Origin: Candidatus Parcubacteria bacterium
Lineage (GTDB): Bacteria > Patescibacteriota > Patescibacteriia > UBA1558 > GWA2-36-10
Length of the DNA stretch: 64,000 nucleotides
Assembly (NCBI GenBank): GCA_018664825.1
Contig: JABJNO010000006.1
Location: 15,157-79,156 of the forward strand
Direction of reading: 5' to 3'
Under the pieces are notes generated by a model that ran no database searches, had not been told where the DNA came from, and saw only the letters and a list, made by a program, of their open reading frames with translations. The position numbers and the translations under genes are program-made. Shown here piece after piece: positions 1 to 54,741 of this stretch. Within the stretch, counting starts at the first letter, position 1, and every line of letters begins with the position of its first letter.

Positions 1-597
1 ACTGCTGTAGCTGCCGGTCGTAAGGAAGCCGCTTCTGCCAATCAGGCAGAGATGGTAGCCCAAGCTGCTGGTAAGCAGGCCGATCTGCTGGCCGATGCTG
101 CTGGTGTCGAAGCTGCTGGTAAAGCTGTCGGTGCGGCCATTCTGGCCAAGCTGGGTGCTGAAGCTGATGGCGCAGACAAGAAGAACAAGGCTCTGGCCAA
201 CCTGTCCGATGGTGCCAAGCTGATCATGGTCTTGGAGAAGCTGCCGACTATCATCGAAGAGATCGGTGAAGCTGGCGAACGCGTCGTGGGTTCGGCCTTT
301 GAGCATGTTGGCTCTGGCCTGGCTGGTATCGATGGCGTCAAGATCGTGGACTTCGGTGGTGGCGGTGGTAACGGTTCCGCTGTTGCCGATCATGCTCTGA
401 ATATCCCCCGAATCGTCTTCAAGACGATGGCGGGATTGAAGGAACTGGGCATCAACCCTGAAGATCTGTTCTCCAAGCTGGGCATCGATATGTCCCAGGT
501 GGAAAACATTCTCAGTGGTGCTCTTACGACCAACAAAGATGTGACTCCTGCTCCCGAGCAGGAGACCGAGACCGAGACCGCTCCGGTCGAAGCTTAG
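1..597 (+). CDS. Flotillin-like (SPFH/band-7, YqiK/FloT-type) protein, C-terminal fragment. The ORF is open from nt 1, so it is 5'-partial.
   Basis: Frame 1 is open from position 1 to a TAG at 595-597. Ala/Glu-rich coiled-coil tail followed by the segment LIMVLEKLPTIIEEIGEAGERVV...GGGGGNG...LNIPRIVFKTMAGLKELGI. This resembles flotillin C-termini (compare E. coli YqiK ...LLEKLPEIA...GGNGG...). GC about 60%, unlike most of the window. Confidence 0.5.
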   Translation, partial: TAVAAGRKEAASANQAEMVAQAAGKQADLLADAAGVEAAGKAVGAAILAKLGAEADGADKKNKALANLSDGAKLIMVLEKLPTIIEEIGEAGERVVGSAFEHVGSGLAGIDGVKIVDFGGGGGNGSAVADHALNIPRIVFKTMAGLKELGINPEDLFSKLGIDMSQVENILSGALTTNKDVTPAPEQETETETAPVEA

Positions 598-675
598 TCC
601 AAGCTGGACTATATCCGTAAGGGAGTTGGTCTCCAGACCAACTCCCTCACTCAATCCTCCAGCAAGGAGTAAGTC

Positions 676-1473
676 ATGAGAGAACGTGAATCTGGTCGTC
701 GTGGTCTACGCGACAATGATCGTGGAAGCGATCGACGTCGTAATGATCACACCGACGATCCTCCTCCTCCCCGTGAGGAAGTGGATACGCATCATGAGGA
801 GCGTAGAACCACTACTGCTCCCCGCCGAAACACTGAATCCGAAAGGGTCACTCCTCCGCCAACTGAGCGCGTTGCTCCAGTTGCAGCAAAAGTTGCTGAG
901 GAAGAGCCGACCAATTCTGTCATCAGTGCTGATGAACTGGCTCGCAACGGCTATACCAGTGAAGCTCCCTGGGAAAATCTTCCCGCGGACGTCGTGGTAA
1001 TCTGCTGTAGCGATCAGCGATTTGGTCGTCAAAACCGTGAATTCCTGCGAGCCCTGGGTTTCCAGAGTCCGCATTTCATCCAGATTCCTTCGGGACTGGC
1101 TGTATTCCACGGTCTGGCCGCGGTAAGTGGATTTTTGCCCAAAGGCATGAATCTTCTGCTCGATAAGGCGATCGATCTGACTGGCGTCAAAGACGTCATC
1201 TGTATCGCTCACCATGACTGTGGTGGCTACAAAGCTGGTCGCTTCGAAGTGATCGGCAAGCTGACTCGCCGTCTGGCTGGCATGGACATCCAAGATGTCC
1301 AGACCGAACAGCTCCACAGAGCTGCTCGTGACGTCCAACTCAGAATGGGCAATGACACGACTGTTCGTGCATTCTACTCCGACGTAGTCGGAAACGAAGG
1401 CGACCAGCAGGTCAAGTTCAGCGAAATTGATCTGATTCAGCGTAGTCTACGCAAAAAGCGCAAGGCAAGCTAA
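676..1473 (+). CDS. Beta-carbonic-anhydrase-like protein with an Arg/Asp/Pro-rich disordered N-terminal extension
   Basis: The two beta-CA zinc-ligand and dyad motifs are in the right order and spacing: VVICCSDQRF (C-x-D-x-R) and ICIAHHDCGGYKAG (H-x-x-C-G). The first 90 aa are low complexity (RRGLRDNDRGSDRRRND, PPPPREE). GC-rich. The internal ORFs 686..1000 and 706..1338 are antisense or out of frame and are ignored. Confidence 0.4.
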   Translation: MRERESGRRGLRDNDRGSDRRRNDHTDDPPPPREEVDTHHEERRTTTAPRRNTESERVTPPPTERVAPVAAKVAEEEPTNSVISADELARNGYTSEAPWENLPADVVVICCSDQRFGRQNREFLRALGFQSPHFIQIPSGLAVFHGLAAVSGFLPKGMNLLLDKAIDLTGVKDVICIAHHDCGGYKAGRFEVIGKLTRRLAGMDIQDVQTEQLHRAARDVQLRMGNDTTVRAFYSDVVGNEGDQQVKFSEIDLIQRSLRKKRKAS

Positions 1474-31320: not shown

Positions 31321-31352
31321 AAAAAGACCTCCCTTTGGAGGTCTTTTTTATT
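31321..31352 (+). terminator. Bidirectional intrinsic terminator between ahpC and the paralog array
   Basis: aaaaagacctccctttggaggtctttttta. A 9-bp stem flanked by A and T runs. Confidence 0.7.
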
Positions 31353-31944
31353 ATTCATATAATATTTTGTCTTTCAAGCCTCCTAGTCTTTTTATTCTAA
31401 AAGCTTCTTCCACCAAAGATGCATCTACATAAATATGACCATGCACAACCAAATCATCGGGCAACTCTTTTATCTTTGTTTTTTTCATATACAACACCCC
31501 TCCTACTTCCAGGCCTTTTGGCAGTTTTGTAATACCGTCATTGTCCAAGTATAGATCTCCTGTTGTAGTCAGATTGTCTGGTATTCTCGAATCAATATCT
31601 TCTGTATCTTTTAAATTTAAAAATCCCTGGACAGCTATTATTTTTATTTCTTCTCCATTTTTTATTCTAGTTTCAACTTTTACTTTTTCTCTAGGCTCAA
31701 CTTCTTCACCAATCTCCTTTGATTGAGCTATGACAGCCTCAACTGTAAACTTGTAGCCATTGATAACTCCTACTTCTTTTTTTAAAAAATCTAAACTTGG
31801 CTCCAACTGATGTTTTTTTAGTGACCTCAACAATCTAAAATCACAATCTTTTGAATCTGCCAAAAAATTGTTATCAAAATTTTGCTTACTTTCTTTGAGC
31901 TGAACAATTTCTCTTCTCAGGTTTTCACAATCTATTGCTTGCAT
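31351..31944 (-). CDS. LRR-like repeat protein, member 1 of a five-gene tandem paralog array (cytoplasmic, no signal peptide)
   Basis: C-terminal triple about-21-aa repeat IPDNLTTTGDLYL / ITKLPKGLEVGGVLYM / IKELPDDLVVHGHIYV. N-terminus MQAIDCENLR. DNA segments are shared with its neighbours. Confidence 0.55.
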   Translation of the reverse strand: MQAIDCENLRREIVQLKESKQNFDNNFLADSKDCDFRLLRSLKKHQLEPSLDFLKKEVGVINGYKFTVEAVIAQSKEIGEEVEPREKVKVETRIKNGEEIKIIAVQGFLNLKDTEDIDSRIPDNLTTTGDLYLDNDGITKLPKGLEVGGVLYMKKTKIKELPDDLVVHGHIYVDASLVEEAFRIKRLGGLKDKILYE

Positions 31945-31953
31945 AATTTTATC

Positions 31954-32529
31954 TTAATCTTCAAGGCCTACGTGTACTGAACCATATATGCCATTTATTC
32001 TAGTCACCTCATCCGTCAAAATGGGATCAATATAAATATCTCCATGTACTATCAAATCATCTGGTAGTTTTTTTATCTTGGTACGGTTGATATGCAGATT
32101 ACCTCCCACTACCAGTCCTCTTGGTAATTTTGTAATCTTTGTACCCTTAAAATTTAAATATTCTTTCACTTCTAAATTGTTGGGTATTTTTGAGTCTATA
32201 TCATTCATCATATCTAAGACTAATCCAATTTTTATGACAGTAATCTTTATACTAGCACCATCTCTATTTCTATACTTAAAATCTAATGACTTTTCTATAT
32301 CTCCTGGATTAAGCCTCATATCAATGGCCTCAATTGCAAACCTATACCCTTTAATAGCTTCCACTTCTGACCTCAAAGATTCTAAACGTTTTTCTAGGCT
32401 AGTTTTCCATAATCTGAGATCAACAAAATCCCACTTCTCTGAAGTGCCTCTACACCTTTCATCAAAACCATCTTTGTCCTCTTTGGTACGATGTATAAAT
32501 TTCCTCGTTTTTTCACAATCTATTGGCAT
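31954..32529 (-). CDS. LRR-like repeat protein, array member 2
   Basis: MPIDCEKTRK ... KEDKDGFD ... WDFVDLRLW ... KGYRF; C-terminus ITKLPRGLVVGGNLHINRTKIKKLPDDLIVHGDIYID. Confidence 0.55.
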   Translation of the reverse strand: MPIDCEKTRKFIHRTKEDKDGFDERCRGTSEKWDFVDLRLWKTSLEKRLESLRSEVEAIKGYRFAIEAIDMRLNPGDIEKSLDFKYRNRDGASIKITVIKIGLVLDMMNDIDSKIPNNLEVKEYLNFKGTKITKLPRGLVVGGNLHINRTKIKKLPDDLIVHGDIYIDPILTDEVTRINGIYGSVHVGLED

Positions 32530-32537
32530 GTTTTTAT

Positions 32538-33128
32538 TTATCCCATTAAATGTATATCTCCTCGTAAATTTCCTGCTTTACGTAATCGAACTACCTCGTC
32601 TCTCAAACTTTCGTCAAGATAAATATCTCCGTGAACCATCAAATCGTCTGGTAATTTTTTTATTTTGCTGTTATTGATATGCAGATTACCTCCCACTACC
32701 AAGCCTTTTGGTAATTCCGTAATATCTGAACCTTGTAAAAATATATTTTCCATCACAGTCATGTTTTCCGGTATTTTTCCATCCAAATTTTCTACTCTCT
32801 TTAAATTCAAAATATCTTTTACTACTATTGTTCTAATCTTTTCTCCACCCCTTAGCCCGCCCTCTACAAGTACTTTTTTTCTTGCTCCCTCAAAATCCTT
32901 GGGCTCACCTACACTAGCCATGACTACACTCACTATAAATTTATAACCTTTAACAAATTTTAACTCTCCCCTTAAAAAATCCAAACGCTGGCCCAGGGCA
33001 ATCCTCCATTGCCTCAAAGCAACGAAATCCCAATCGGCCACTTCACCAATACAAGATTTATCAAACCATCTTTTATCTTCCTTGGCGTGCTCTATGGTTA
33101 TTCTTATTTTTTCACAATCTATTATCAT
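32538..33128 (-). CDS. LRR-like repeat protein, array member 3
   Basis: MIIDCEKIRI ... KEDKRWFD ... WDFVALRQW ... KGYKF; C-terminus ITELPKGLVVGGNLHINNSKIKKLPDDLMVHGDIYLD. Identical 29-nt DNA stretch shared with member 2 (attgatatgcagattacctcccactacca). Confidence 0.55.
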   Translation of the reverse strand: MIIDCEKIRITIEHAKEDKRWFDKSCIGEVADWDFVALRQWRIALGQRLDFLRGELKFVKGYKFIVSVVMASVGEPKDFEGARKKVLVEGGLRGGEKIRTIVVKDILNLKRVENLDGKIPENMTVMENIFLQGSDITELPKGLVVGGNLHINNSKIKKLPDDLMVHGDIYLDESLRDEVVRLRKAGNLRGDIHLMG

Positions 33129-33130
33129 AT

Positions 33131-33721
33131 TTATGCTGCTACAAAGAGACTACGTATATTACCCTTTTTCTTTAGCTTGGTTATTTTATCTCCCAATAAA
33201 GGTAGTTGTTTTTGATTAATAACCAACTCTCCCTCAACTACAAGATCATCTGGAATATCCGTAATAAGAGTACCCCTAATATCCATATTACCACTTACTA
33301 GTAGATCACGAGGTATTTCTCTTACATTAAGATCTTTGATAAAAAAATTTCCATCTATTGTCCAGTCACCCGGAATCCTTACTGTCTTTTCACCAAATAT
33401 ATCTTTTCCGTTTTCTGTAAAATCCAAACCTCCTTTGTAGAGCATTCTTCCGTGTCTTTTAAATTCCATGAACTCTACCATAGATAAGAGATCTTCTCTA
33501 TCAGAACTTCTGATAAATTCCATCATATCAACCCCAATTACTTCTCCTTTGAGTTTTTCCAATGCTTCACTTATATTTATTTTTTTTTCTCTCAACTTGC
33601 CAAGATCCAAAGAATCATCGATAGCATCAAATTGATCCACAAAACCAGCAAAGGCTGGCTTTGTTACCTTTAGTAAATATCTCCATTGTTCACATTCTAC
33701 TTTGTTTTTATTTTTAAACAT
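33131..33721 (-). CDS. LRR-like repeat protein, array member 4 (divergent N-terminus)
   Basis: C-terminus IPGDWTIDGNFFIKDLNVREIPRDLLVSGNMDIRGTLITDIPDDLVVEGELVIN retains the repeat. Confidence 0.5.
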   Translation of the reverse strand: MFKNKNKVECEQWRYLLKVTKPAFAGFVDQFDAIDDSLDLGKLREKKINISEALEKLKGEVIGVDMMEFIRSSDREDLLSMVEFMEFKRHGRMLYKGGLDFTENGKDIFGEKTVRIPGDWTIDGNFFIKDLNVREIPRDLLVSGNMDIRGTLITDIPDDLVVEGELVINQKQLPLLGDKITKLKKKGNIRSLFVAA

Positions 33722-33725
33722 ACTT

Positions 33726-34319
33726 TTAATACAACATGCTTAATTTGCCACCTATCTGACCTTTGTCTTTTAATCTTTGCATCAGCTCTCTACGAGGATC
33801 ATTGGGATCAGAAAAAGTCAGATAACAATCTCCCTTGATGATAATATCTTCTGGAATATAATATCTATCGTCTTTATCAAATGAAAAATTACCATTCACT
33901 ACTAAACCTTTTGGTAAAAAACTAATATCTGTATTATTAATATTAAAATCCCCCTCAACAACCAAATTCTTTGGTAAAAATTTGATTGGCCTTCTAGATA
34001 AATCCAAATCTTCTTGATATATTATCTTTCTTTTTTCAAAACTAATTCCAAATCGTGGTAAAAAATATTTTCTATCATCTTCCGAACCTACCATGGCTAC
34101 CAATCTCCGTATTTGCTTTTGAGCAGGAACCATAAAAAGGGTTTCTTCAATATTTTTTTTCAACAAGCCAAAAGAATAGGTAGTATTTCCAATAGTAGCA
34201 AAATTTCTTGTTTTTATTGCATCTGGATATTGATCAGCAAAGTCAACTACAAAGCCCTTCATAGCTCCTAGGTCTCTCCTCAGTTCTTCACAATATTTTT
34301 TTGGTGTTTCTTGGCTCAT
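33726..34319 (-). CDS. LRR-like repeat protein, array member 5 (divergent N-terminus), first gene of the array
   Basis: C-terminus IKFLPKNLVVEGDFNINNTDISFLPKGLVVNGNFSFDKDDRYYIPEDIIIKGDCYL. Confidence 0.5.
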   Translation of the reverse strand: MSQETPKKYCEELRRDLGAMKGFVVDFADQYPDAIKTRNFATIGNTTYSFGLLKKNIEETLFMVPAQKQIRRLVAMVGSEDDRKYFLPRFGISFEKRKIIYQEDLDLSRRPIKFLPKNLVVEGDFNINNTDISFLPKGLVVNGNFSFDKDDRYYIPEDIIIKGDCYLTFSDPNDPRRELMQRLKDKGQIGGKLSMLY

Positions 34320-44842: not shown

Positions 44843-44876
44843 AAACCCCCTATTTTCATAGGGGGTTATTTTTTTA
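44843..44876 (+). terminator. Bidirectional terminator (aaccccct-attttcat-agggggtt)
   Basis: 8-bp stem flanked by A and T runs. Marks the left edge of a GC-rich island. Confidence 0.65.
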
Positions 44877-45149
44877 TACTTTTTTCAAAGTTTCGAGAAT
44901 ACGCTGAGGGACAAAACAGATTTCGTCGGCTTGGCTACGCACCCAAAGCACGGGGTCGCTGTGATTTACACAATCACATCGCATACCTTCGGGTATAGGC
45001 GCTGCTCCCAGCACAGTAGCTGGCTTGTCCATGTGCTCCTCAGGAGCAATCTGATCGCCGGCTTCAAAGCCAAACTGACTACAAGCCTCAGTATCGACCT
45101 CGATTGTTCCCCCGCCATCTTGCAGGGTGATTGTTTGCATCTTCGGCAT
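44874..45149 (-). CDS. Hypothetical protein in GC-rich island
   Basis: 91-aa ORF, GC about 52%. Contains CDCVNH. Third gene of a three-gene minus-strand set. Confidence 0.4.
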   Translation of the reverse strand: MPKMQTITLQDGGGTIEVDTEACSQFGFEAGDQIAPEEHMDKPATVLGAAPIPEGMRCDCVNHSDPVLWVRSQADEICFVPQRILETLKKV

Positions 45150-45172
45150 TACAAAACCTCCGTTTGTTTTGG

Positions 45173-45361
45173 TTACTTCTTTTTGGGTGGATAAACCGCG
45201 TTGTAACTTTTACGACCATTCTCATAAAAAACACCACGCCTCGCAATCAACAAAGCACCTTGAGCCTCTGGATTGAGATGCTCAAAAGCCACTTGGCTAG
45301 TTGGAATGTCCTTGTGCTGAGGACGCAGATCTTCTCGGTCAAACTCTACCTTCATAATCAA
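45173..45361 (-). CDS. Hypothetical small protein in GC-rich island
   Basis: 62 aa. Overlaps the upstream gene by 4 nt. Confidence 0.35.
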   Translation of the reverse strand: MIMKVEFDREDLRPQHKDIPTSQVAFEHLNPEAQGALLIARRGVFYENGRKSYNAVYPPKKK

Positions 45362-45567
45362 GCCTCTTCCTTTGGGTAGCTCTCAAGAATCCTCGCCCAG
45401 CCCCAATGGCTAGGATTTTCTAAAACAATATCCTCAATAGTCTCTCTTAGGGTGGGTGGTTCCTCTTTGAGATCGATGGTAAATCCAAGGGCAAACAAGC
45501 AAAGCAAGGCAACCCAGGAAATGACGAATCTCTTTGAACTCATATTATTCTCCTTGTTAGGGTACAA
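45358..45567 (-). CDS. Hypothetical small secreted/membrane protein in GC-rich island
   Basis: N-terminal hydrophobic segment FVISWVALLCLFALGF. Confidence 0.35.
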   Translation of the reverse strand: MYPNKENNMSSKRFVISWVALLCLFALGFTIDLKEEPPTLRETIEDIVLENPSHWGWARILESYPKEEA

Positions 45568-45732
45568 AAAACTACATTAGACAATACAATATTTCATGTA
45601 TTTTGTCAATATATAGCCTAAAAAAGCCTTTCTTTTGTAAAAAACAAGAAAAAACTTGATAAAAGGTTAAATCTATTATAATCTACCCTTAGTCCTTTAA
45701 AACTCATAGGAAAATAAACAAAGGAGATAAAG

Positions 45733-45894
45733 ATGGGCAATAAAGGAGCCTCCCCCGAATTTGTAAGGCAAGCCCGCGAAATCTCTGACCGCGCCAACAT
45801 GCGTCAAGCTGGCTATGGCCCTGGCGGACCTTCTCCTAGGCCTCCAATCCAAAGATCGCTCTGGCGTAAATTTCTCGACAGACTCTTTTCCTAA
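45733..45894 (+). CDS. Small protein (53 aa) with strong SD, not in the ORF track
   Basis: aaaggagataaagATG. Sequence MGNKGASPEFVRQAREISDRANMRQAGYGPGGPSPRPPIQRSLWRKFLDRLFS, hand-translated. A TTGATA...TATAAT promoter lies about 55 nt upstream. Followed by the terminator aagagggaac-tacg-gttccctctt + T6. The track's antisense ORF 45697..45900 is probably spurious. Confidence 0.45.
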   Translation: MGNKGASPEFVRQAREISDRANMRQAGYGPGGPSPRPPIQRSLWRKFLDRLFS

Positions 45895-45984
45895 ACACAC
45901 CCAAAGAGGGAACTACGGTTCCCTCTTTTTTATTACCCTCAAAAATGCTAAAATAAGTACGTAAATAAAATAAAAACACTCAAA

Positions 45985-51987: not shown

Positions 51988-52213
51988 AAATAAACACATG
52001 AAAAAATATACACTTCCTATTATTATTTTTATTCTTGGCATCATCTCTTTTATTACCTTTGGCCTTATTGGTTCCGAAGTTTCAGAAGATGGGATGCTTA
52101 TAGAACAATTCGGACTTATACCTATTGGTTATTTATTGATAACTATCAGTATAATATGGAGCATAATTATTTTAATTATCCCCATGTTTCAAAAGACAAA
52201 TAAAAAACCCTAG
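51974..52213 (+). CDS. Small two-TM membrane protein
   Basis: 79 aa with two hydrophobic helices. Overlaps the upstream stop. Confidence 0.35.
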   Translation: MLTDKNKHMKKYTLPIIIFILGIISFITFGLIGSEVSEDGMLIEQFGLIPIGYLLITISIIWSIIILIIPMFQKTNKKP

Positions 52214-52229
52214 ATTAAAATCTAGGGTT
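52206..52229 (+). terminator. Bidirectional terminator (aaccctagatt-aa-aatctagggtt)
   Basis: Perfect 11-bp palindromic stem between convergent genes. Confidence 0.65.
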
Positions 52230-52236
52230 TTGTTTA

Positions 52237-52578
52237 TTAACAGGCTTTTTCCCTCTGCCACATGATAAAAAAATATGTGAGCATAAACAAAAAGAAACAG
52301 GGAAAAATAAAGCCAACTGCTGTGATTTTGGCAATGGCAAAATGAATCACCAGGTACAAGGCCGCTAATAAAATAGCCGCTCCCGACCAATTGATACGCT
52401 TGCCTATAATACCTCCAGCCACAATGCCAGCAATCAGCCCAAAGGCAAACCCTATCAAACAGCCCAAATAAGCTCTCTGCTGATCTTGCTCTCCTAGGGC
52501 TTCAACCCAAGAAAAAAAGAATCTTTGCACAATCAGACTAGCTGATGAGACCAAGATGATAGGAATCAGGTTACGCAT
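52237..52578 (-). CDS. Integral membrane protein (3-4 TM), hypothetical; strong SD
   Basis: aaaagggagataatcATG. A TTGACA -35 lies upstream. Confidence 0.45.
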   Translation of the reverse strand: MRNLIPIILVSSASLIVQRFFFSWVEALGEQDQQRAYLGCLIGFAFGLIAGIVAGGIIGKRINWSGAAILLAALYLVIHFAIAKITAVGFIFPCFFLFMLTYFFIMWQREKAC

Positions 52579-52695
52579 GATTATCTCCCTTTTTTAAAAG
52601 ATCAAAGTTTGAATTTAACGATTGATATTATTATATATAATCATCTTTGTCAATAAATAAACCCCCTAGATAAAAATATAGGGGGTTTTATAATA

Positions 52696-52775
52696 AGGGA
52701 GCAGGAACTCACCGGAAGAGCTAGGCTCCTCACGAACTCCGTAGAGCCCGCTGGGCGAGAGAGCCCCTACTCCAC
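52696..52775 (+). ncRNA. GC-rich highly structured element of about 80 nt (candidate small RNA or repeat); strand uncertain
   Basis: GGGAGCAGGAACUCACCGGAAGAGCUAGGCUCC forms nested helices (GGAGC/GCUCC and CUC/GAG around ACCGGAA). Then CUCCGUAGAG and GGGCGAGAGAGCCC hairpins. A long-range GGAGCAGG/CCUACUCC pairing is possible. About 65% GC in AT-rich surroundings. No family recognised. Confidence 0.25.
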
Positions 52776-52780
52776 ACTGA

Positions 52781-53149
52781 TTATTCTTTACTATCAGCCA
52801 AATTGACCTCAGGCCAACTCAAGACTTCTTCGGGAATTGGACTCCCCCCTTCTCTTGCTTGCCTAGCCAAAATCCGACGTAGATGAAAATTTTGGCAAGC
52901 TATCATATTGTGCATATGGCAAATATTGCTACTGCGAAAAACTCCCAAGATGCCAGGACAATCAGAATAATGTATCCGACCACTATTTTCACCTATGCGA
53001 AAAGGTGGAAAACTACCCAATGTCCACGTACCTCTTTCTTCATTTACTTTTACATTGCGCGGACACTTGCCAGTGACTTTGATTTCATTACCTTCTCTAA
53101 TTAGAAAAAGTAATCCTGACCATTTTTTTCTGGTTTTTTTCATAGTCAT
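52781..53149 (-). CDS. Cys/His-rich small protein, possible zinc-dependent nuclease-like (HNH/Vsr-like motif uncertain)
   Basis: SDCPGILGVFRSSNICHMHNMIACQNFHLRR. GC-richer. N-terminal basic segment. Confidence 0.3.
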   Translation of the reverse strand: MTMKKTRKKWSGLLFLIREGNEIKVTGKCPRNVKVNEERGTWTLGSFPPFRIGENSGRIHYSDCPGILGVFRSSNICHMHNMIACQNFHLRRILARQAREGGSPIPEEVLSWPEVNLADSKE

Positions 53150-53322
53150 CTTATACTCCTTATTTTGGGTTTAAAAGTACTATCTCAATAATCAAAAATT
53201 ACTACTTAACATAACAATTGTCAAATATCATTGACAAAATACCTTCAAAATACTAATATTTAGTGTAATTCACCTAGGTAAAAATCCTATAAAATGTACC
53301 CTAAAACAAAAGAGGTTTCCAA

Positions 53323-53703
53323 ATGAACAACAAAGTGCGCCGTTTTCTTTTGATCTTGTTATTGATCCTCATCTACATCCCTGTCCGTGGTATCGACAAC
53401 ATCAACGGTGATCTCCGATTTATAGGCTTCTGCCCCAACTGTACGGATTCCTATTATTGGAAAGAATCCAGCTCTCTGACTTATTGGAAAGCCGAAGATC
53501 AAACTTCGTTTGGCCACACATCCTCAGCAGTGATGATCTGTAAAAAATGTATGGATGACCCCGAGGGGCTGAGTCCCAACCGAATCGGCTTTATGCTCTG
53601 GTGGCCACTTGGAATAGGTGGCTGGGACAAAGAAGGCACAGACATGGTCAAGGATGCTGTACGTCAGTACAAACAAGGTGACGCAAGTCTTCGGTCAATC
53701 TAA
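53323..53703 (+). CDS. Secreted/membrane-anchored zinc-ribbon protein (CxxC...CxxC), hypothetical
   Basis: SD caaaagaggtttccaaATG. Motifs FCPNCTD and ICKKCMDDPEG. N-terminal hydrophobic helix. Confidence 0.4.
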   Translation: MNNKVRRFLLILLLILIYIPVRGIDNINGDLRFIGFCPNCTDSYYWKESSSLTYWKAEDQTSFGHTSSAVMICKKCMDDPEGLSPNRIGFMLWWPLGIGGWDKEGTDMVKDAVRQYKQGDASLRSI

Positions 53704-53750
53704 AGCCCAAAACAAACACACCGATTTCTCCCCAACCGAAAGGAAAGACT

Positions 53751-53993
53751 ATGTGGTTGATACGATTCAATCAATGGTACGACCAACTATCCCCCGATCC
53801 TCGTTTCATTTTATTCCTGCTCTTCATCGCCATAATCGGCATTGGGTCGATTAGCTTTGGTCTGAATCTCAATCAGCCCAAGCTAGCTCTATTTGGCACT
53901 GTCTGGATTGCCATCTTTGGTGGCCAAAGAGCGATTTACTTCCTTCTCAATCGAAGAGTTGTTCGTTCCAGAGTCCAAAAACCTAGAGGTTAA
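53751..53993 (+). CDS. Small two-TM membrane protein
   Basis: 80 aa. Followed by a terminator (ccctcg...cggggg + T-run). Confidence 0.35.
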   Translation: MWLIRFNQWYDQLSPDPRFILFLLFIAIIGIGSISFGLNLNQPKLALFGTVWIAIFGGQRAIYFLLNRRVVRSRVQKPRG

Positions 53994-54066
53994 ACCTCAC
54001 TCACCCTCGTTTTTTTAAACGGGGGTTTTATTTTACAAAAATATCTAAAAGGATTAAGATTATCTT

Positions 54067-54741
54067 ATGGAAAATAATAAACTAGAAGATTGTAAAAAAC
54101 TAAAGGAATACCTGGCCAATGCCAAATCGGGTCTTGAAAAAATTGATGAATTACTAGCTTCTAGTGAAATTGCTTTTGCTGGACCTGCAAAAAACTCTTT
54201 AGATTTTTTTATAGCTGAAATAAAAAAACTTTTAGATTGCTACAAAGAAATATCTTTTATTGAATATACTACTCTAGCAGAACTTGATAAAAATGATTTT
54301 CATAGCACAGAATCTTTTAAAGCCAACATATCACAACAAATAATTTTGGCAATGCTAAATGGCTATGCAGAAGGACGATATCATGCGGGTAACTCTAACT
54401 ATATAGAAGATAAAGAATCCGATAAGATAATAGGCATATCCTATAATGCACGTGGGTTTAAAGATCCTGAAAAAGATTTTGCTGGTTTTGCAGAATATAT
54501 CAAAAAAAATATTCGTCTCATCCCCTCCGACCTAAGAGATCATTTTACCATACATATTGGTCATAACTTTGGTGATGCCTGTGGTATATTGATAAAAGGA
54601 GATGAAATAAAAATAATAGACCAAGACGTAATAAACGATCAGGGAATGACCATAGGCAACAAGGGAATTACTTATTATGATTATAATAACGAACAGCTAA
54701 AAAAAATCTACAAGAAAGTGACAGAAGAACTAAGTAAATAA
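54067..54741 (+). CDS. Hypothetical protein with a helical N-terminus related to the next gene
   Basis: KLEDCKKLKEYLANAKSGLEKIDELL versus KKDCETMAENLDDAKGALELIKKVL in the downstream gene. GC about 30%. Confidence 0.4.
   Translation: MENNKLEDCKKLKEYLANAKSGLEKIDELLASSEIAFAGPAKNSLDFFIAEIKKLLDCYKEISFIEYTTLAELDKNDFHSTESFKANISQQIILAMLNGYAEGRYHAGNSNYIEDKESDKIIGISYNARGFKDPEKDFAGFAEYIKKNIRLIPSDLRDHFTIHIGHNFGDACGILIKGDEIKIIDQDVINDQGMTIGNKGITYYDYNNEQLKKIYKKVTEELSK

Follow-up and report, generated by a model that had tools for sequence, protein, structure and literature searches.

A structured minus-strand element between a stop codon and a terminator of a Candidatus Parcubacteria genome: a candidate small RNA of the 3'-UTR type within a cluster of small genes with Shine-Dalgarno leaders

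CpxQ, SroC and DapZ of enterobacteria are small RNAs that are derived from 3' untranslated regions (3' UTRs) and share the terminator of the mRNA. A comparable RNA of Xanthomonas, RsmU (77-117 nt), is processed from the comEA 3' UTR, contains 3-4 GGA motifs, is restricted to the genus and is absent from Rfam (PMC7694677). For the Candidate Phyla Radiation (CPR), bacteria with tiny genomes whose post-transcriptional regulation is almost unexplored, a literature search found no described small regulatory RNA. In this study, a stretch of 64,000 nucleotides (the window; 36.7% GC) from a contig of Candidatus Parcubacteria, a member of the CPR, was analysed, with a focus on a GC-rich structured element located directly behind the stop codon of a small open reading frame (ORF). 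We hold it to be somewhat better than an even bet that this element is an undescribed, narrowly distributed, structured minus-strand RNA of ~80 nt, belonging to the terminator-sharing, 3'-UTR type of small RNAs. Like such RNAs, it follows a stop codon and precedes the intrinsic terminator of the same mRNA, has a length of ~80 nt and is better conserved than the upstream coding sequence; like RsmU, it has 3-4 GGA motifs and a narrow lineage, and it is absent from Rfam. Unlike 3'-UTR-derived small RNAs, in which a single-stranded seed is followed by the terminator, it is a compact three-way junction with a closing stem of 13-20 bp, its upstream ORF is not conserved and its host belongs to the CPR.

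The element and the structure that follows it on the same strand are:

52692-52780, minus strand: structured RNA element with the core at 52696-52775, defined by its fold, covariance models and homologues
52645-52690, minus strand: intrinsic-terminator-like hairpin AAACCCCCUAUAUUUUUAUCUAGGGGGUUU with the U-rich tail UUUAUUUAUU, defined by the fold of 52645-52850(-)

The core has a GC content of 63.7% (an earlier note on this DNA, made from the letters alone, had put it at about 65%); if tRNAs and a few coding stretches rich in GC are set aside, no other GC peak in the window is as sharp. The element is present in a single copy within the 64 kb. On the minus strand its core begins 5 nt past the stop codon (52781-52783) of an ORF encoding a 122-aa protein, and on the 3' side come a CCCCC...GGGGG hairpin plus U-rich tail, then a promoter-like site and finally a gene for a 113-aa protein. 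The element is indeed flanked by a gene end and a terminator-like hairpin, in agreement with the earlier note. The hairpin at 52655-52690 was not flagged by a simple terminator scanner, and its assignment as a terminator is based on the fold of 52645-52850(-).

The minus strand of the element folds with -42.6 kcal/mol (z=-3.3; of 200 shuffles, one was as good), whereas the plus-strand fold (-28.4 kcal/mol, z=-1.1) is no better than those of shuffled sequences; the nested helices mentioned in the earlier note are thus a feature of the minus strand. The closing stem P1 comprises 13 bp (GGAGUAGGGGCUC/GAGUUCCUGCUCC). Past P1 the fold shows a bulge of four nucleotides, UCUC, and an extension by 3 bp; the two hairpins are P2, with 8 bp and the loop UACG, and P3, with 7 bp and the loop CUA. 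All these parts together constitute a three-way junction. Among the 31 pairs, 8 are non-Watson-Crick, and all of these are G-U on the minus strand, which makes them A-C mismatches on the plus strand; this asymmetry argues for selection at the RNA level.

Two homologous loci were available for comparison, besides contigs from several metagenomes that carry the same locus at 100% identity. The first (L006) is a 1.3-kb contig, reached via P0002, a relative of a 126-aa protein that is encoded close to the element on the opposite strand. The second (L062) is a related locus, reached via P0003, the closest homologue of the 122-aa protein, and it is collinear with the window over 52.8-61.2 kb (tblastx). 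Positions 494-638 of L006 align to 52690-52837 of the window at 84%, and the L006 element is at 496-584(-). Within a core of 79 nt the two sequences differ by 5 substitutions (~94% identity), while in the neighbouring 126-aa gene the DNA identity is only 74%. Of the five changes, two form a double change from G-C to A-U in P2, two convert U-G to U-A and G-U to G-C in P1, and one affects a base in a loop. Each is compatible with the minus-strand fold, and several would give mismatches on the plus strand.

A covariance model (R1) was built from the window and L006 elements; the window element scores 111 bits with this model and 101 bits with model R2. In a search of ~660 kb, with 47 GC-rich loci as decoys and 22 viral loci in the searched set, the top non-self match of R1 was L062 8635-8730(+), with 16.7 bits. 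This sequence, when folded alone, adopts the same architecture (a ~20-bp closing stem and two hairpins; -48.3 kcal/mol, z=-7.0). It retains the 3' strand of P1 (GAGUUCCUSCUCC) almost unchanged, as well as the junction UCUCGCC, and it is situated directly 3' of a stop codon and directly 5' of a CCCCC...GGGGG terminator. Analogous CCCCC...GGGGG hairpins with U tails are found 3' of the element in L006 and L062, and the order of stop codon, element and intrinsic terminator on the same strand is common to 3/3 loci.

The z-scores of the three elements against dinucleotide shuffles are -3.3, -4.2 and -7.0. In the three-sequence alignment standard pairs occupy 95.7% of the pair cells, as opposed to 44-52% once the partners are slid; both sides have changed in 9 pairs (1-3 after sliding), and the same consensus structure is given independently by RNAalifold. 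Known families were not recognised: Rfam 15, run over the whole window at the gathering threshold, returned 4 tRNAs only, ARAGORN placed no tRNA at the element, and permissive Rfam scans of 52500-52900, L062 8560-8800 and L006 400-700 gave only sub-threshold matches driven by the terminator hairpins (the best being Yfr10, 33.5 bits against a threshold of 43), so that no family reached its threshold in the window, L006 or L062.

The genes and signals that surround the element are:

52204-52231, both strands: bidirectional terminator at the left border of the gene cluster (terminator scan)
52237-52578, minus strand: 113-aa hydrophobic ORF with a GGGAG Shine-Dalgarno (SD) motif and a promoter-like site, TTGACA-17-TAATAT, at 52653-52625
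52781-53149, minus strand: 122-aa ORF with an AAGGAG SD motif and the stop codon at 52781-52783
53208-53260: divergent promoter region with the -35 palindrome TTGTCAA-N6-TTGACAA at 53218-53237 (promoter scan)
53323-53703, plus strand: 126-aa gene with an SD-like AGAGG motif, an N-terminal hydrophobic anchor and the pattern CPNC...CxxC in its product
53751-53993, plus strand: 80-aa ORF for a predicted small membrane protein, with an SD-like AGGAA motif
54003-54026, plus strand: terminator of the 126-aa/80-aa unit (terminator scan)

In 3/3 loci the element ends a transcription unit that is divergent from a gene of the 126-aa family (53323-53703+ in the window, 913-1290+ in L006 and 7331-7726- in L062). 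According to the promoter scan, the minus-strand half of the divergent promoter serves the 122-aa unit and the plus-strand half the 126-aa unit, and the plus-strand promoter is kept, together with the 5' UTR, in L006 818-912. The ORFs between promoter and element are a different matter. These encode a member of the 122-aa family in the window, a 48-aa acidic product in L006, and a 131-aa and a Cys-rich 94-aa product in L062, and their bodies are non-homologous among the three loci. The L062 copy of the 122-aa-family gene is found 3.3 kb away, with only a plain terminator after it. Beyond the element there are the 113-aa gene (window), a convergent 71-aa gene (L006) and a convergent csrA gene (L062; PF02599, 8773-8958(-), ~40 nt past the terminator of the element); the 113-aa gene is absent beside the element in L006 and L062. 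Since the sequence and fold of the element are kept while the preceding ORF is swapped, it is most likely an autonomous RNA module, and its conserved position relative to the 126-aa gene points to vertical inheritance. A conserved structured RNA that stays beside one gene under such conditions is a concrete candidate for a regulator in the CPR. The strand, the fold, the conservation, the synteny and the stop-codon-to-terminator position of the element can be read directly from the three loci.

The favoured reading, i.e. a small RNA of the 3'-UTR type, would work as follows. Transcription would start at the divergent promoter (~53208-53237) on the minus strand, cross the SD-led 122-aa ORF, enter the three-way-junction fold 5 nt past the stop codon and end at the hairpin and U-tract (52690-52645). 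The element would act as RNA, not as a DNA site, and as an autonomous module rather than one devoted to regulating a single gene upstream, its stable genomic partner being the divergent 126-aa CxxC...CxxC gene with the common promoter. We infer that it is transcribed, accumulates as a separate small RNA and binds a partner. Its conservation pattern suggests specific recognition and not mere stability. The tetranucleotide GGAG occurs 3, 3 and 4 times in the elements of the window, L006 and L062, respectively, compared with ~0.3 expected occurrences (p=0.002 to 5e-5, shuffles). One site opens P1, one immediately follows the P2 loop on its 3' side (ACGGAG or AAGGAG) and one belongs to the 5' strand of P3; only the P2 motif borders a loop (UACG followed by GAG in the window, CAAAA followed by GGAG in L062), the others being located within predicted stems. 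The GGAG motifs, which recur at conserved positions (one per helix), and the conserved junction UCUCGCC are likely to form a recognition surface for a protein or RNA partner. Among the options left by the earlier note (small RNA, recombination site or relic of a mobile element), the first is the one favoured by a strand-specific structure that is kept in two homologous loci through compensatory or wobble-compatible changes.

Several points weigh against the favoured reading. There are only three distinct sequences, two of which are close relatives. The pair counts are biased toward the structure, because L062 was aligned by a model made from the other two, and a one-base register shift in P3 cuts five of the "compensatory" pairs to about one; the robust compensatory pairs number roughly 3-4, not 9. 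Pattern scans of metagenome and genome collections revealed no further members, with patterns that L062 itself would have failed, so either the family is very narrow or the scan patterns were too strict. In addition, neither a promoter scan nor inspection revealed a convincing promoter for the element itself in the sequence upstream, so that processing would be needed to yield a separate small RNA. Finally, the DNA encoding the tail of the upstream ORF (52784-52840) is co-conserved with the element in L006, which could indicate a cis relationship with that ORF. With three sequences and a seemingly very narrow family, the wider importance of the element is uncertain.

The alternative that survives best, although we consider it rather improbable, is a purely cis-acting 3'-end structure with no trans function, which would protect the mRNA from 3'-to-5' exonucleases, aid termination or insulate the convergent neighbour. 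It would account for the placement between stop codon and terminator in 3/3 loci, for the undetected promoter and for the co-conserved ORF tail of L006. Protection, however, needs stability and not a particular sequence, yet the core is ~94% identical where the adjacent coding DNA is 74% identical, and both the UCUCGCC junction and the GGAG positions survive in the divergent L062 copy. Such a role also fits poorly with an upstream ORF that is non-homologous in the three loci and with the 122-aa homologue of L062, which does with a plain terminator.

A specific form of the favoured reading is that the element is a decoy of the CsrA/RsmA type, whose 3-4 GGA(G) motifs titrate CsrA acting on the minority of genes with AAGGAG-like leaders (see below). 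The GGAG repeats and the csrA gene beside the L062 copy suggest it as a lead only, and we regard it as doubtful, more so than the cis-acting structure. The CsrA site is A(N)GGA, and the loop-stem boundary of P2 fits it, with ACGGA in the window and L006 and AAGGA in L062. GGAG is enriched at least 10-fold, csrA is convergent with the element ~40 nt past its terminator in L062, and RsmU of Xanthomonas provides a precedent (PMC7694677). The element thus resembles the CsrB/RsmZ RNAs in its multiple GGA motifs, one of them an ANGGA at a hairpin loop, and in the adjoining csrA of L062. It differs from them in having far fewer motifs (3-4), mostly in stems, in its other architecture and in giving no Rfam match to CsrB/Rsm families. 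Moreover, no csrA homologue is detectable within the 64-kb window, the leader of the 126-aa gene contains GAGG and no GGA, most GGA motifs are buried in predicted stems, and GGAG/CUCC-rich helices may just be purine/pyrimidine-rich stems. A broader version, in which the element, once released from the 3' UTR, serves through its GGAG repeats as a decoy for CsrA or for the 16S anti-SD end, thereby controlling the SD-bearing minority of genes, is a long shot of a similar order. If true, it would make the element the first described regulatory small RNA of the CPR/Patescibacteria, and an RNA would control the SD-bearing minority, mostly small membrane or secreted orphans.

Far less probable is that the element acts at the DNA level. 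It would then be a site of recombination or attachment, a hairpin of the attC/REP kind or what is left of a miniature mobile element; a recombination site and a mobile-element relic were among the options of the earlier note. The imperfect inverted-repeat architecture and the differences in adjacent ORFs and far-side neighbours among the three loci would agree with this. However, neither the window nor ~100 kb of related CPR sequence contains more than one copy of the element, scans of viral sequences yielded no true match and searches of phages and plasmids none at all, no integrase or transposase is located nearby, and no terminal or target-site repeats were seen. All its wobble pairs are G-U on one strand, and it keeps its place with respect to the 126-aa gene.

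That the element has no function, being a chance GC-rich spacer or the folding remnant of a decayed gene, is just as improbable. GC-rich sequence folds well by its composition and only three sequences are at hand, yet the z-scores (-3.3 to -7.0) were obtained against dinucleotide shuffles, the element is conserved above the adjacent coding DNA with substitutions that preserve the structure, and its syntenic position is kept even where the protein of the 126-aa family is only 43% identical. Least probable of all is a 5' leader or riboswitch that uses the terminator as an expression platform for the 113-aa membrane-protein gene: the minus-strand order of element, terminator hairpin and 113-aa gene is as expected, but a promoter-like site (TTGACA-17-TAATAT) is interposed between terminator and gene, no riboswitch family was matched, and the idea is largely refuted by L006 and L062, in which the next gene is convergent and nothing is left downstream to regulate.

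The element is embedded in a cluster of small genes with unusual leaders. The four ORFs at 52237, 52781, 53323 and 53751, to which the earlier note had assigned SD motifs, agree with the ORF list and the leaders determined here, and in all four the SD-like motif is 6-9 nt upstream of the ATG. All 75 non-overlapping window ORFs of at least 70 aa were scored by the duplex energy of their leaders with an anti-SD probe. The median energy was -1.9 kcal/mol, and only 13/75 ORFs had a comparable SD-like leader. Among these are the 113-aa (-9.0 kcal/mol), 122-aa (-7.7), 126-aa (-7.0) and 80-aa (-9.8) ORFs and a 224-aa gene at 54067 (-7.3), and this succession of SD-bearing genes (52237-54741) is the sole run of five in the window (permutation p=0.005). 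The GC content of the SD-bearing ORFs is 42.2%, compared with 36.0% for the rest (p=0.001), and none of those scanned against Pfam reached the curated cut-off of a family. The homologues of the small genes in L006 and L062 also have leaders of the AAGGAG type, which means that the SD motif is conserved.

The 16S anti-SD motif has been found in 48% of Parcubacteria only (PMC9297842), and the low overall use of SD motifs in the window fits this survey. The cluster consists of small lineage-specific genes with SD motifs, unlike most genes of the genome. One genome shows a sharp split between an SD-less majority and a clustered minority of small orphans with strong SD motifs, which bears on the same survey (PMC9297842).

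The description of this cluster as an SD-using, GC-richer island is statistically supported (by the two p-values given above), but its GC excess is modest, since the whole island has 40.9% GC against 36.7% and most of its genes are within 1 sd of the gene-level spread. The genes have 42.4% (113-aa), 39.6% (122-aa), 46.5% (126-aa) and 44.4% GC (80-aa), i.e. 39.6-46.5% instead of the 45-50% stated earlier. At the island borders no integrase and no tRNA were found, and synteny with a related genome extends to part of the genes. With its small GC deviation and no mobility genes or tRNA boundary, the cluster is not supported as a horizontally acquired genomic island. The region is flanked by conserved genes for a phosphoenolpyruvate (PEP)-utilising enzyme and Maf, with a MazG-like gene and a dCMP deaminase gene further to the right.

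The -35 palindrome of the divergent promoter (window 53218-53237) is perfect, and a similar sequence, ATTGTCAA-N4-TTGACAAT, is found in L062 (4907-4930) upstream of the 122-aa-family gene. The palindrome could be an operator common to these small genes.

Among the encoded proteins, the 122-aa protein is identical to an NCBI protein. Its CHMH...C..FH cluster (the protein contains the string ICHMHNMIACQNFH) had been taken in the earlier note as suggestive of a small metal-dependent nuclease. An exhaustive search of representative sequences gave eight relatives and a profile search three more (P0003-P0013), all of them unannotated; these are mostly encoded on short metagenomic contigs in varied contexts (beside SecE-NusG, IleRS/RuvA and others). 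In the family alignment (A4, 12 sequences) the conserved unit comprises residues 1-~100. Residues P30, W42, G53, G69 and V70 are invariant, and L16, R18, F71, C85, H89 and R91 nearly so. Of the proposed cluster, C76 and H80 vary across the 12 members, being peculiar to the present sequence, and H78 is replaced by Gln in two of them; only C85, H89 and R91 are nearly invariant. No match was found in Pfam, NCBIfam, PHROG, PADLOC or among PDB sequences.

The AlphaFold model of this protein, computed from the 12-sequence alignment (predicted local distance difference test, pLDDT, 83.4; predicted template modelling score, pTM, 0.73), comprises a 5-6-strand sheet, a long helix (residues 76-101, ~25 residues) and a disordered tail. 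Foldseek searches with the model gave nothing significant, with a best E of 6 in PDB and of 0.6 in BFVD. Like HNH/Vsr nucleases, the protein is small and has a local Cys/His cluster in this one sequence; unlike them, it belongs to a family that does not conserve the cluster, and its sheet with the ~25-residue helix has no significant structural neighbour. An HNH/Vsr-like nuclease is therefore unsupported, as the cluster varies and neither the profile nor the Foldseek searches detected significant similarity, and the model describes a beta-sheet plus long-helix protein that is not a recognisable nuclease. This averts a wrong annotation and leaves a family of 12 sequences with a confidently predicted fold without structural neighbour in PDB or BFVD.

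Residues ~103-119 (IPEEVLSWPEVNLAD, DNA 52784-52840) form the disordered tail, which is conserved with L006. Where the window and L006 ORFs end (last ~17 codons, IPEEVLxWPEVNL), the changes are mostly synonymous, e.g. TTG to CTA and TTG to CTT, and the element is thus accompanied by a translated tail in both genomes. The same stretch (52784-52840(-) in the window, 591-640(-) in L006) can form a 7-9-bp hairpin, UUGGCC-NGA-GGUCAA, that encodes WPEVN, and a small hairpin around the stop codon with one compensatory change from U-A to C-G. The RNA element may reach into the ORF on its 5' side, in two sequences in which constraints on peptide and RNA are inseparable.

Two further loci of the 122-aa family have notable features downstream of the gene. 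In L014, a 5S rRNA gene (1009-1116(-), 80.9 bits) is located ~80 nt downstream of a gene of the family, and in L013 a GC-rich stretch with a T-arm-like GGTTCGAGTCC (900-1163) is found downstream of another member.

The 126-aa protein has two homologues, P0002 (72% identical; the sole relative in a word-indexed protein search) and the product of L062 7331-7726(-) (43% identical). In the alignment of the three (A5), CPNC (37-40) and C73-x2-C76 are invariant. These two invariant CxxC pairs are shared with small zinc-ribbon proteins, from which the 126-aa protein differs in its N-terminal membrane or signal anchor and in having no curated family at threshold (Zn_ribbon_20, E=0.14, 12.7 bits, below the cut-off of 27). 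Because of this anchor the Cys pairs may be extracytoplasmic disulfides, and the sequence is compatible with a zinc ribbon and equally with disulfides outside the cell. Zinc-ribbon proteins had been proposed for the cluster in the plural, whereas only this one has a CxxC...CxxC pattern. Cys pairs are absent from the 113-aa and 80-aa products, which resemble small membrane proteins and had no informative matches. The 80-aa ORF is called on 5 contigs in public collections, and no homologue of it was found in L062; it is probably co-transcribed with the 126-aa gene, and its status as a real gene is less certain.

Some variants of the locus in public data need caution. The metagenomic contig L091 is identical to the window over 1195 nt and then, from window position 52284 inside the 113-aa gene, continues with unrelated low-complexity sequence (1196-1546), which is probably an assembly chimera rather than a real variant. 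An apparent 140-nt deletion in the 126-aa gene of L004 (window ~53372-53512) is a run of 10 N, i.e. a scaffold gap, and the 50-aa representative P0015 of the L004 cluster is an artefact of this gap.

An earlier cluster in the window (44874-45935) also consists of small, SD-led, GC-richer orphan ORFs, encoding 91 aa (-), 62 aa (-), 69 aa (-) and 53 aa (+). Its peak of 64% GC (45742-45871) corresponds to the coding sequence for the 53-aa product and not to a second RNA element. The terminator at 45886-45933 is 85% identical to L006 159-203, which is only ~300 nt from the L006 element; on account of this match, both islands may be contiguous in the relative represented by L006.

Two other regions of the window stand out. 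Positions 1-1500 have 52-57% GC, against 36.7% overall, and contain ORFs at 52-597 (181 aa) and 676-1473 (265 aa, with an AAGGAG leader); there was no Pfam match above threshold to these ORFs and no rRNA match in this part, which may be foreign DNA. At 31351-34319 (-) there are five tandem head-to-tail ORFs of 197, 191, 196, 196 and 197 aa, which look like a paralogous array.

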